Source of the DNA: Shigella phage Tf
Direction: 5' to 3' (one strand)
DNA length: 64,000 bases
Sequence record: OR980947
In this document: one piece after another, positions 14,289-15,593 of the stretch
How positions within the stretch are numbered: the stretch's first letter is position 1
Layout: the number at the start of each line of letters is the position of its first letter
The notes under the pieces: generated by a model
What the model was told of the DNA's origin: nothing
Seen by the model: the letters and a program-made list of their open reading frames with translations, nothing else
Database searches by the model: none
Program-made: the position numbers and the translations under genes

Positions 14289-14371
14289 GGTTATGTAGTT
14301 TAATTTGGTTAAAATACTCCCACGTAAAAGGATATTGGGAGATAATGTGAGTTCAAGTCTCATCGTAGCCG
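14289..14371 (+). tRNA. tRNA-like gene with non-canonical (enlarged) anticodon region; identity unresolved
   Basis: acceptor ggttatg/cgtagcc pairs, T-arm gtgag-TTCAAGT-ctcat and CCA present, but the central stem ctccc/gggag encloses 13-15 nt instead of a 7-nt loop. Confidence 0.4.
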
Positions 14372-14401
14372 CCAATTTTGAGAGGGCTATTTAGCCCCTC
14401 C

Positions 14402-14432
14402 CTTAAAGAGTTCTTACGAGTATTCTTTAAAG
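14402..14432 (+). promoter_or_regulatory. conserved motif cttaaagaGTTCTTACGAGtaTTCTTTAAAgg (copy 1 of 3)
   Basis: shares GTTCTTACGAG...TCTTTAAA with 17435-17464; located just upstream of RNA elements. Confidence 0.35.
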
Positions 14433-14434
14433 GA

Positions 14435-14513
14435 GCAGAAGACCAATTACAGCAAGTACGTATGATATTTTCAAGCCACTTTAATTTTGAAAAAATTTAA
14501 AACTTGGTCTGGC
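14435..14513 (+). ncRNA. structured inter-tRNA element X3
   Basis: cagaagaccaa...ttggtctgg; same family. Confidence 0.4.
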
Positions 14514-14524
14514 TCAACAAATTT

Positions 14525-14656
14525 ACAGAAGACCGTTTACAGCAAAAATTAAACAATCTATTTCTCGGTAAAGAAAAGGAGAAGGTTCGATTCCTTCACT
14601 CGACAGATGTCGAGTTGGTGTAATGGTAGCACTTAAGATGATAAACAACGGTCTGG
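14525..14656 (+). ncRNA. structured element X4 enclosing the permuted tRNA-like module
   Basis: cagaagaccgtt...aacggtctgg closing stem; interior carries T-arm/acceptor/D-arm in permuted order. Confidence 0.4.
14577..14634 (+). other. circularly permuted tRNA-like element (T-arm plus 3' acceptor strand precede 5' acceptor strand plus D-arm)
   Basis: gaagg-TTCGATT-ccttc, then actcgac, loop agat, then gtcgagt (perfect 7-bp complement), then tg and D-arm gtgt-AATGGTA-gcac; embedded in hairpin element 14525-14656. Confidence 0.45.
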
Positions 14657-14657
14657 T

Positions 14658-14801
14658 AATTATCTTTGTAGATAAGTTATTAAGCTTACCTGTGAGTATG
14701 CGACCACAAAGGGTGAAAGGGTAAATTCTAGATTTAAACCCAACAAGGCACATCGCTACAGACCTTAAGCAAGTCTGGGTAGCTTATCTACAAAGATAAT
14801 T
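14658..14801. repeat. 144-bp element bounded by perfect 19-bp inverted repeats
   Basis: aattatctttgtagataag at 14658-14676 and exact reverse complement at 14783-14801. Confidence 0.6.
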
Positions 14802-14805
14802 TAAT

Positions 14806-14878
14806 GGAAGTGTAGCAGAATGGTGATGCGGCAGACTTTTAATCTGACAGGCGATGGGTTCGAATCCCTCCACTTCTA
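14806..14878 (+). tRNA. tRNA-Lys (anticodon TTT)
   Basis: acceptor ggaagtg/cacttct, anticodon stem caga/tctg loop ctTTTaa, T-loop GGTTCGAATCC, CCA encoded. Confidence 0.65.
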
Positions 14879-14885
14879 CCAATAT

Positions 14886-14959
14886 GGTTCAGTCGCAGAT
14901 AAGGTAATGCAGGGGTCTCATAAGCCCTATGAATGTGGGTTCGATTCCCATCTGAACCT
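14886..14959 (+). tRNA. tRNA-Met/Ile2 (anticodon CAT)
   Basis: acceptor ggttcag/ctgaacc, anticodon loop ctCATaa, T-loop GGTTCGATTCC, CCA encoded. Confidence 0.7.
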
Positions 14960-14964
14960 CCAAA

Positions 14965-15037
14965 GCTGTGAAAGCACATATGGATGTGCATTCGGCTGAT
15001 AACCGAAAGGCAGAAGGTTCGAATCCTTCTCACAGTA
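14965..15037 (+). tRNA. tRNA-Ile (anticodon GAT)
   Basis: full cloverleaf: D-stem gcac/gtgc, anticodon stem ttcgg/ccgaa loop ctGATaa, T-stem gaagg/ccttc, CCA encoded. Confidence 0.8.
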
Positions 15038-15055
15038 CCAATTTCAATAAAGTTG

Positions 15056-15084
15056 TTGACACTGAGATGTGACCACTTTATAGT
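15056..15084 (+). promoter_or_regulatory. sigma70-like promoter inside tRNA cluster (TTGACA-17-TATAGT)
   Basis: aaagttgTTGACActgagatgtgaccacttTATAGT. Confidence 0.5.
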
Positions 15085-15254
15085 AACCTTAGTTTTCGTT
15101 GCGTAGCGTCTATTTTGCAAATTTAAAATAAATGCAAACGACAATGTTTTTCTGGCAGTAGCTTGATAGGCTAAACACCAGTGAGGTCTTCCAATCCCTC
15201 ATCAAAGAATTTGGCGTACTCGCCCACGGTATGATTAATAAGGTGGGCATCTTT

Positions 15255-15282
15255 AAGGGCTTTCTAAGAGAGTCTTTAAAGA
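15255..15282 (+). promoter_or_regulatory. conserved motif ...ctaagagaGTCTTTAAAg (copy 2, partial)
   Basis: agagtctttaaag shared with copy at 17449; just upstream of tRNA-like gene at 15289. Confidence 0.3.
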
Positions 15283-15288
15283 TAATTA

Positions 15289-15367
15289 CGGGGCGTATCT
15301 CAGCTGTCTTCTAAACAGCCGTTAACCGAGTAAGTGGAGTATGCGGGTTCGAGTCCTGCCGCCTCGA
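15289..15367 (+). tRNA. tRNA-like gene, atypical D region; hairpin with Arg-type TCT anticodon loop
   Basis: acceptor cggggcg/cgcctcg plus T-arm and CCA are canonical; a perfect 5-bp hairpin with loop ctTCTaa lies too close to the acceptor for a standard D-arm. Confidence 0.35.
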
Positions 15368-15513
15368 CCAATTTAGTTAGCAGATTGCTTAGACGACCTT
15401 ATCGGGTCTCCGTGTAAGGAGGTGGTCTGTATCTCATGTTTTCCAGAACATGTAAATAATCTGAGAAGGGGCTTTACAGTGTTGCGAAAATACGGTAAGC
15501 TTCGAATTATAGT

Positions 15514-15593
15514 GTGGGACGATGTTAAGACTCTAAGGCATGAGCAACGGCTTCCAACACCGTTTCAAAGGGGTTCAACTCCTCCGTCCCATG
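15514..15593 (+). tRNA. tRNA-like gene, anticodon not resolved
   Basis: acceptor gtgggac/gtcccat, T-loop GGTTCAACTCC, encoded CCA; 80 nt; no clean anticodon arm by manual folding. Confidence 0.35.

Follow-up and report, generated by a model that had tools for sequence, protein, structure and literature searches.

The genome of Shigella phage Tf, analysed here as a window of 64,000 nucleotides (sequence record OR980947), is that of a Felixounavirus (Felix O1-like, Ounavirinae) and carries, among its tRNA genes, three tRNA-like loci with aberrant central domains. These are a tRNA-Asp-derived gene with a 15-nt anticodon loop (locus 1, 14289..14374), a rewired tRNA-Arg(UCU)-like gene (locus 2, 15289..15370) and a tRNA-Trp(CCA)-like gene in which the stretch between the acceptor and D stems is expanded (locus 3, 15514..15596), all on the + strand, as are all window features described below. 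The reading we favour, and hold to be reasonably likely, treats loci 2 and 3 as phage tRNAs that function with unusual cores, and locus 1 as a remnant that still has the shape of a tRNA. It is close to certain that loci 2 and 3 represent functional RNAs under selection; that they are actual decoders, of AGA and UGG, respectively, is judged from sequence and is probable rather than assured. On the same basis, we infer that both are processed, aminoacylated and used in decoding.

A 7-bp acceptor stem and a T-arm are present in each locus, and an encoded CCA (14372-14374, 15368-15370 and 15594-15596) follows the discriminator base, largely as the first-pass annotation of this DNA had described; none is folded as an ordinary tRNA by software: ARAGORN calls none of the three. 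The same program reports 23 tRNA genes in the window (13703-18548, all on the + strand), covering 17 amino acids. The amino acids without a call are Arg, Asp and Trp, which correspond to loci 2, 1 and 3; loci 2 and 3 fall exactly into decoding gaps of the tRNA set. The surrounding region (13500-18700) shares 97% identity with Escherichia phages REP8-12 and has matches in 315 phage records. With the Rfam tRNA model (RF00005), locus 1 reaches 44.2 bits in an alignment that inserts bases into the anticodon loop, and locus 2 scores 31.2 bits (gathering threshold 29) only in a 570-nt search, with the D-arm deleted and a 20-nt insertion; locus 3 has no match to this model, its sole Rfam hit being tRNA-Sec at 22.4 bits, below the threshold of 47.

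The T-arm (5-bp stem, 7-nt loop of the GTTCRANYC type) is complete in loci 1 and 2, and in locus 3 comprises 4 bp plus an A.C mismatch or, alternatively, belongs to an 8/4 acceptor/T arrangement. Locus 2 possesses a 5-bp anticodon stem, a 7-nt loop with U33 and a sense anticodon (CUUCUAA); locus 1 does not, having a 15-nt loop with no GUC, and the loop of locus 3 measures 7 nt if a C31.A39 mismatch is accepted, otherwise 9 nt. A D hairpin at positions 10-25, two bases past the acceptor, exists in locus 1; locus 3 has one after a 9-nt connector, and locus 2 has none. Earlier remarks that the anticodon loop of locus 1 is enlarged, and that the anticodon hairpin of locus 2 lies too near the acceptor (7 nt between them, with no D-arm there), were both correct.

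Locus 2 contains recognizable tRNA parts in a rearranged order. The acceptor stem (15289-15295 paired with 15360-15366, then A73 at 15367 and CCA at 15368-15370) leads through U8, A9 and a further U into the strand CUC (15299..15301), which pairs with GAG (15328..15330) to form a D-like helix. Within this helix lie the anticodon arm (15303..15319), a 5-bp covarying stem with the invariant loop CUUCUAA and the anticodon UCU at 15310-15312, and the linker CGTTAACC (15320..15327) that joins the anticodon stem to the GAG strand and is 3-10 nt long in related sequences. The GAG strand is followed by a D-loop-like segment, UAAGUGGAGUAU (15331..15342), which contains an invariant GG-A that we infer to be equivalent to G18 G19 A20, and which runs directly into the T-stem (T-arm 15343-15359). 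Related sequences form a family with the same order throughout: a 7-bp acceptor, U A U, C-N-C, A and the 5-bp stem around CUUCUAA in the 5' part, followed by the linker (CGUUAAYC in most members), G-N'-G, UAAYUGGAGUAU, the T-arm and the acceptor 3' strand.

Structure statistics for this family, derived from 29 distinct sequences, strongly favour the rearranged fold. Pairing is preserved in 99.1% of cells, and double changes occur in 14 of the 20 pairs, with covariation at six of the seven acceptor pairs. The covariation score was 0.77, compared with 0.19 after shuffling; none of 500 shuffles reached the observed values, and sliding the pairing pattern as a control lowered pairing to 34-46%. 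For the C-N-C/G-N'-G helix that encloses the anticodon arm, the middle pair is mostly U-A, is A-U in four members (L008, L048, L296 and L299) and G-C in two (L009 and L027), and every one of these changes is compensated. Because the upstream base of this pair was outside the first search pattern, its covariation is no artefact of selection. Neither the loop CUUCUAA nor the GGA segment varies. A covariance model assigned 83-104 bits to family members versus 33 bits or less to canonical tRNAs, and identified an intermediate (L051:2689-2765, 53.8 bits) with the same architecture, the loop CUACGAA, the anticodon ACG (Arg, CGN) and a 3-nt linker. This ACG form adjoins a canonical tRNA-Arg(UCG); the viral contig that holds both is 247 kb long and carries the UCU form as well.

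By BLAST, the locus 2 element is found in 277 phage records, spanning Felix O1-like, T5-like Klebsiella, phi92-like, PBECO4-like jumbo, Vibrio, Cronobacter and Streptomyces phages, with 84-88% identity outside Ounavirinae. It is hardly ever annotated, apart from an occasional label 'tRNA-OTHER'. A pattern scan of IMG/VR yielded 43 loci, and a looser scan followed by the covariance model added six, for a total of at least 49; the pattern matched a single contig among 185,579 bacterial species genomes, which marks the family as phage-specific. Members sit in tRNA clusters that otherwise have no tRNA-Arg(UCU), some of which include Arg(ACG) or Arg(UCG). The sister phages SP116 (Felixounavirus) and Sf15 (Mooglevirus) carry a canonical tRNA-Arg(UCU) in the identical slot with identical flanks, and the rewired and canonical genes, judged by their positions, behave as alleles. 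An HNH endonuclease gene directly follows or overlaps the rewired tRNA-Arg in Felix O1 (L074, 13952-14396), whose tRNA cluster contains three HNH genes, and in a Klebsiella T5-like phage (L005, 1008-1607). Together with near-identical acceptor stems in unrelated phages, this adjoining gene suggests cassette-like transfer, and the HNH gene may drive the spread of the rewired allele. Clusters with a rewired tRNA-Arg also contain further aberrant tRNA genes, reported by ARAGORN as 'tRNA-???' with two-base anticodons (6-nt loops), at L010 928-997 and 2598-2672, L012 262-337 and L051 1770-1845.

Several features point to arginine as the amino acid of locus 2. The family keeps the bases relevant to arginyl-tRNA synthetase (ArgRS), namely C35, U36, the A that follows GG, and a purine (A or G) at position 73; in E. 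coli, ArgRS relies chiefly on A20. Among the Arg codons in the long open reading frames of the window, AGA is the most frequent (242 of 574, or 42%; 17.5 per 1000), and in E. coli it is the rarest. The proposed chain would run from the acceptor through U8-A9-U and CUC straight into the anticodon arm, and on through the linker, GAG and UAAYUGGA to the T-stem. Here, the CNC strand would lead 5' to 3' into the anticodon stem as the D-stem 3' strand (22-25) does in a normal tRNA, and GNG followed by A-A-Y-U-G-G-A would reproduce the order A14, R15, Y16, Y17, G18, G19, A20 that comes after the D-stem 5' strand. Since the strand order matches that of normal tRNA pieces, the helices and the GG/T-loop elbow could form with the connectivity of the D-stem swapped. 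RNase P would excise the RNA, host ArgRS would charge it via C35, U36, the A20-like A and A/G73, and the product would read AGA.

Locus 3 departs from the canonical fold elsewhere. In place of U8-N9 it has a 9-nt connector, GAUGUUAAG (15521..15529), which is invariant in Ounavirinae and puts nine bases, seven more than the usual two, between the acceptor and D stems. The D-arm (15531..15544) consists of a 3-bp stem, CUC/GAG, that covaries with CAC/GUG, and the loop UAAGGCAU. It had been thought that locus 3 has no clear anticodon arm; one is present at 15546..15564, with a 5-bp covarying stem and the loop CUUCCAACA, in which the anticodon CCA occupies 15554-15556 (the other reading being the canonical 7-nt loop with the C31.A39 mismatch), and the anomaly lies instead in the connector and the acceptor/T split. 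G15521 (G8) can pair with C15585 (C65) to give the 8/4 arrangement, and otherwise the split is 7/5 with the A.C mismatch. The acceptor begins with A1-U72, or G1.U72 in the window, and ends with G73 at 15593; the variable loop has 5 nt, and the 4-bp T-stem opens with G-C or U-A. Anticodon stem variants include ACGG/CCGU, UAAG/CUUA and UAGG/CCUA around a loop of the form C-Y-U-C-C-A-A-M-M.

The element occurs in 235 records (Felixounavirus, Mooglevirus, Citrobacter phages and Pectobacterium phage Wc4-1), and a strict pattern found it only in contigs that match Ounavirinae in size (~87 kb). Across 12 distinct variants, 99.2% of cells are paired and double changes affect eight of 20 pairs; none of 500 shuffles reached the observed values, and slid controls gave no double changes. 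Two of eight acceptor pairs covary, as do four of the five anticodon stem pairs (double changes), and the D-stem pair 21-32 is UA in seven sequences and AU in five. The minimum free energy (MFE) fold of the single sequence is the proposed cloverleaf, and its anticodon stem-loop closely resembles the one in E. coli tRNA-Trp. The determinants of tryptophanyl-tRNA synthetase (TrpRS) are the CCA anticodon, G73, A1-U72 and G5-C68; locus 3 keeps the CCA anticodon, G73, A1-U72 or G1.U72, and G5-C68. With these determinants kept, it would serve as the Ounavirinae tRNA-Trp(CCA) and decode UGG. No canonical tRNA-Trp was found in the Ounavirinae clusters examined, and a 2025 study of Mooglevirus Sf14, which reported 26 tRNAs for 19 amino acids, described Ounavirinae as being without tRNA-Trp (PMC12482277). 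One arrangement is common to the locus 3 connector and the usual locus 2 linker: GUUAA, two bases, and then the strand preceding a UAA..GG loop.

By its position, locus 1 is orthologous to the tRNA-Asp(GTC) of Felix O1, and it has kept its acceptor, D-arm, T-arm, G73 and CCA. Of 172 matching records, 163 carry an orthologue that is ~8 nt shorter and, where annotated, is named tRNA-Asp; the version in the window is restricted to nine records (REP5-12), with 95-99% identity. In this REP5-12 type, the 7-nt loop CTGTCAC has been replaced by the 15-nt ACGTAAAAGGATATT (14322..14336), which contains no GUC and for which no second copy that could have served as donor was detected within the window. 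The MFE fold lengthens the anticodon stem to 9 bp with a hexaloop. The tRNA-Asp allele of SP116 has the same T-arm (GTGAG/CTCAT) and a normal anticodon loop, CTGTCAC, which indicates that the T-arm changes came first and that the loop replacement is recent. The anticodon is the main determinant of aspartyl-tRNA synthetase (AspRS). From its sequence, the RNA should still be processed, with AspRS charging and decoding lost; locus 1 is probably a tRNA-Asp dead for decoding, which lost its anticodon in a recent sub-lineage. We consider it rather likely to be a young pseudogene, the nine near-identical genomes being too alike to judge selection.

The loss of the anticodon from locus 1, in a change confined to about nine near-identical genomes, would also fit the view that all three loci are decaying, functionless tRNA pseudogenes, as would the acceptor mismatch in the REP9 copy of locus 3 and the rejection of all three by prediction software. 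This view is hard to reconcile with the finding that, in distant phages, each helix of loci 2 and 3 shows compensatory substitutions, or with the 84-88% identity of locus 2 between enterobacterial, Vibrio and Streptomyces phages, and we regard it as extremely improbable; for loci 2 and 3 themselves, pseudogene status is rejected on covariation and is next to impossible. The term 'pseudo-tRNA' used in the first-pass annotation consequently suits locus 1, with its recently replaced anticodon loop and no GUC. It does not suit loci 2 and 3, given compensatory changes in every helix, the invariant sense anticodons UCU and CCA, ArgRS or TrpRS identity nucleotides and the gaps that they fill, nor locus 2 in particular, which is an allelic replacement of the canonical tRNA-Arg(UCU) in the same slot of sister phages.

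Other observations weigh against loci 2 and 3 being working tRNAs with the proposed folds. RNAalifold favours a local hairpin in the middle of locus 2, and the single-sequence MFE differs from the proposed structure. Neither fold was retained: the local 'variable-arm' hairpin (YCG/YGG) shows only one-sided changes and is impossible in L296, L299 and the ACG variant, all of which retain the CNC/GNG helix, and the MFE pairing of CUC with the GAG of GGAG is contradicted by CGC and CAC variants that keep GGAG. Sequence diversity is low for locus 3, with its 12 variants. Encoded CCA is missing from 11 of the 37 distinct genomic contexts of the locus 2 family, the remaining 26 having NCCA and no further pairing; six of the CCA-less contexts show 8-15 additional bp between leader and trailer and five show little extension, and canonical tRNAs adjoining CCA-less members do encode CCA. 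In L028, a canonical tRNA-Arg(UCU) stands right beside the rewired gene. Locus 2 in the window moreover combines G3.U70 (15291, 15364) with A73 (15367), the alanine identity set, so that an AGA reader mischarged with Ala is possible from its sequence; the same combination is seen in T5-like and jumbo-phage copies and not in phi92-like or Vibrio copies, and G3.U70 is found in seven of the 29 family variants. Finally, we know of no case in which bacterial EF-Tu and ribosomes use tRNAs that lack a canonical D-arm.

The combination of G3.U70 and A73 is also a feature of transfer-messenger RNAs (tmRNAs), and a tmRNA-like element lies 120 nt upstream of locus 2. This tag element (15092-15262) has a tag frame at 15134-15169 that encodes ANDNVFLAVA, with the sequence AAAUAAAU GCA AAC GAC AAU GUU UUU CUG GCA GUA GCU UGA UAG, followed by covarying hairpins. 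A sigma-70-like promoter, TTGACA-17-TATAGT (15056..15084; 11/12 matches), precedes the tag element, locus 2 and locus 3, and is also kept in SP116 and Sf15. Proximity, a shared promoter and the G3.U70/A73 pair would thus allow locus 2 to be the tRNA-like domain of a phage tmRNA-like system whose tag part is the upstream element. Such a system is very improbable: only seven of 29 family variants have G3.U70, the anticodon arm of locus 2 is complete and its acceptor stem closed, hundreds of phages carry the tag element and no locus 2, the reverse also occurs, and sister phages have a canonical tRNA-Arg at the locus 2 position. ARAGORN found no tmRNA in the window. Both an alanine identity and a tmRNA-like domain were accordingly rejected for locus 2, in view of the non-conserved G3.U70, the independence of the tag element and the canonical tRNA-Arg in the sister slot.

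The tag element is itself widespread: the hundreds of phages that have it belong to unrelated families, and it occurs in Ounavirinae, Ackermannviridae and many 40-60 kb contigs, once just downstream of an antiterminator Q gene. Tags of the form ANDxxxLAVA show synonymous and whole-codon changes only, and the stop is always at the end. ARAGORN reported no tmRNA at the tag-element loci tested, and tmRNA models, including the two-piece form, matched only below threshold; the element is unannotated, and literature searches for a LAVA tag found nothing specific. In L198, an 85-kb viral contig, a tRNA-like gene directly 3' of the tag element carries a ~40-nt insertion in the anticodon region; its acceptor is UGAGGGG/CCCCUCA and its D-arm and T-arm are normal, and the gene is missed by ARAGORN.

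Just upstream of the tRNA cluster, the gene at 12122-13537 encodes a protein with a Ro60/TROVE and vWA fold (Pfam DUF2828 and DUF7788), annotated as 'RNA-binding protein' (phrog_850). An AlphaFold model built from 29 homologues reached a predicted local distance difference test (pLDDT) score of 86, versus 42 for a single-sequence model, and the ten best Foldseek matches in the PDB were all Ro60/TROVE proteins (E 3e-8 to 2e-6, TM 0.5-0.64, full length); sequence and profile searches of the PDB gave no significant match. The family is common in large phages (2724 homologues at E <= 0.001), and Pfam reportedly lists DUF2828 in eukaryotes too. Among the tRNA genes are four paralogous Y-RNA-like genes (13870-13946, 14036-14101, 14434-14514 and 14523-14659), which share a covarying outer helix, an AGA bulge, an AGACC/GGUCU helix, a bulged G and the motif UNCAGCAA. 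The element at 14523-14659, with a T-arm, a closed acceptor hairpin and a D-arm, has a YrlA-type layout (z -2.95). The Ro60-fold protein and these Y-like RNAs probably act as partners.

The Rfam YrlA model was tried for the Y-like elements and gave no match, nor does it match loci 1-3. Three of the four (13877-13943, 14044-14097 and 14531-14655) have sub-threshold matches to the Rfam model Dicty_Class_I_RNA (14-24 bits; threshold 41.5), and the Y-like elements share with Dictyostelium Class I RNA a terminal stem, UUACAGCAA beside the 5' stem strand and a CUG 3' end; Class I RNA has been described as dictyostelid-specific (PMC7919456). A scan of IMG/VR for the Y-like 5' motif returned mostly single matches, at roughly the chance level estimated for 15 specified bases, and four copies in Ounavirinae only. 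The spacer between loci 2 and 3 (15371-15513), near-invariant across Felixounavirus and Mooglevirus, folds as an extended hairpin, AGCAGAUUGCUU...GGUGGUCUGU (-19.8 kcal/mol), and is similar at its ends to the stem motif of the Y-like RNAs; CUGAAGACCGUAACAAA is present also in the spacer at 16362-16456.

With a Ro60-fold protein gene and Y-RNA-like genes in the same cluster, loci 2 and 3 might be non-translational tRNA mimics, acting as ligands of the phage Ro60-like protein or as decoys for tRNA-targeting nucleases or toxins of the host. The roughly 30% of the locus 2 family that has no CCA, some of it with long leader/trailer helices, and the L028 gene alongside a canonical tRNA-Arg(UCU) are in keeping with this idea, as is the proposal that phage tRNAs counter anticodon nucleases (PMC10264068). 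A decoder, however, needs what is seen here, namely a sense anticodon loop that does not vary, identity bases for ArgRS and TrpRS, and NCCA (26 of 37 contexts), and the precise allelic exchange with canonical tRNA-Arg(UCU), the filling of the sole gaps of the tRNA set and the high use of AGA likewise argue for translation. Loci 2 and 3 also do not have the conserved stem and motif of the four Y-like RNAs. Taken together, we consider a mimic role unlikely and favour working tRNAs.

On a broader and more tentative view, to which we give somewhat less than an even chance, the locus 2 family is a natural topological isomer of tRNA that is charged by ArgRS, used by ordinary bacterial ribosomes and spread as a cassette among unrelated virulent phages, where its altered core would evade a host factor that recognizes canonical tRNA-Arg; locus 3 would be a second, independent case for Trp. 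The odd cores might, as a matter of conjecture, be kept for escape from host tRNA-targeting factors, phage tRNAs having been proposed to counter anticodon nucleases (PMC10264068). Literature searches found no description of phage tRNAs with a rewired D-arm or of the locus 3 architecture; a viral-RNA catalogue of 2023 includes a motif, DNAVirus_2961, that sometimes overlaps ARAGORN tRNA-Arg calls and could represent the locus 2 family.

If loci 2 and 3 decode, they are natural exceptions that work with the translation apparatus of E. coli and Salmonella, and because the carrier phages (Felix O1-like, T5-like, phi92-like and PBECO4-like) are easy to grow, the question is directly testable. Annotation would then need correction: tRNA-Arg(UCU), a classic phage tRNA that is seemingly absent from many tRNA-rich phages, would probably be present in many of them, as would the tRNA-Trp of Ounavirinae, and both would be invisible to standard software. 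The rewired scaffold could, in that case, serve tRNA engineering, and may be relevant to the conflict in which host defences cleave tRNAs and phages supply their own.

Among known systems, locus 3 comes closest to tRNA-Sec and allo-tRNAs, for which work by Mukai and colleagues from 2017 reportedly lists 8/5, 9/4, 8/4 and 9/3 acceptor/T arrangements. An 8-bp acceptor with a 4-bp T-stem is possible in locus 3, and tRNA-Sec is its best, albeit sub-threshold, Rfam match; it differs in its 5-nt variable loop, CCA anticodon, 12-bp rather than 13-bp stack and 9-nt connector. For locus 1, the relevant comparison is with tRNAs of altered anticodon loop, including frameshift-suppressor tRNAs with loops of 8-9 nt. 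Phage tRNAs with altered anticodon loops are known (PMC10264068), and locus 1 similarly differs from its canonical orthologue in the anticodon loop only. Its 15-nt loop, extended stem and missing Asp anticodon nevertheless go beyond point changes or one-base expansions.

YrlA and other bacterial Y RNAs contain tRNA-like modules and are bound by Ro60 (PMC4201824), and the phage cluster resembles these systems, which phages are known to carry too, in having tRNA-like RNAs beside a Ro60-type protein gene. In a Y RNA, a protein-binding stem holds both ends, the acceptor hairpin is closed and an anticodon is missing, a description that fits the element at 14523-14659 and not loci 1-3, whose acceptor ends are open with CCA and of which loci 2 and 3 have anticodons.

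Locus 2 is most directly compared with canonical phage tRNA-Arg(UCU), such as the SP116/Mooglevirus allele and T4 tRNA-Arg, with which it shares the loop CUUCUAA, the T-arm, the 7-bp acceptor, CCA, a UAAYGGA-type D-loop with A20, its position in the cluster and the presumed reading of AGA. Unlike these, it has its D-stem strands directly 5' and 3' of the anticodon arm, no D hairpin before the anticodon stem, and the D-loop-like segment in the place of the variable loop. The D-armless tRNA-Ser(AGY/AGN) of metazoan mitochondria similarly has no D hairpin between acceptor and anticodon stems, reads AGN codons and is missed by standard finders. There, however, the D-arm has simply been lost, in an organelle system with co-evolved factors, whereas locus 2 keeps a 3-bp D-like helix and the GG loop in a new connectivity, with an Arg identity and a host that translates by the bacterial system.

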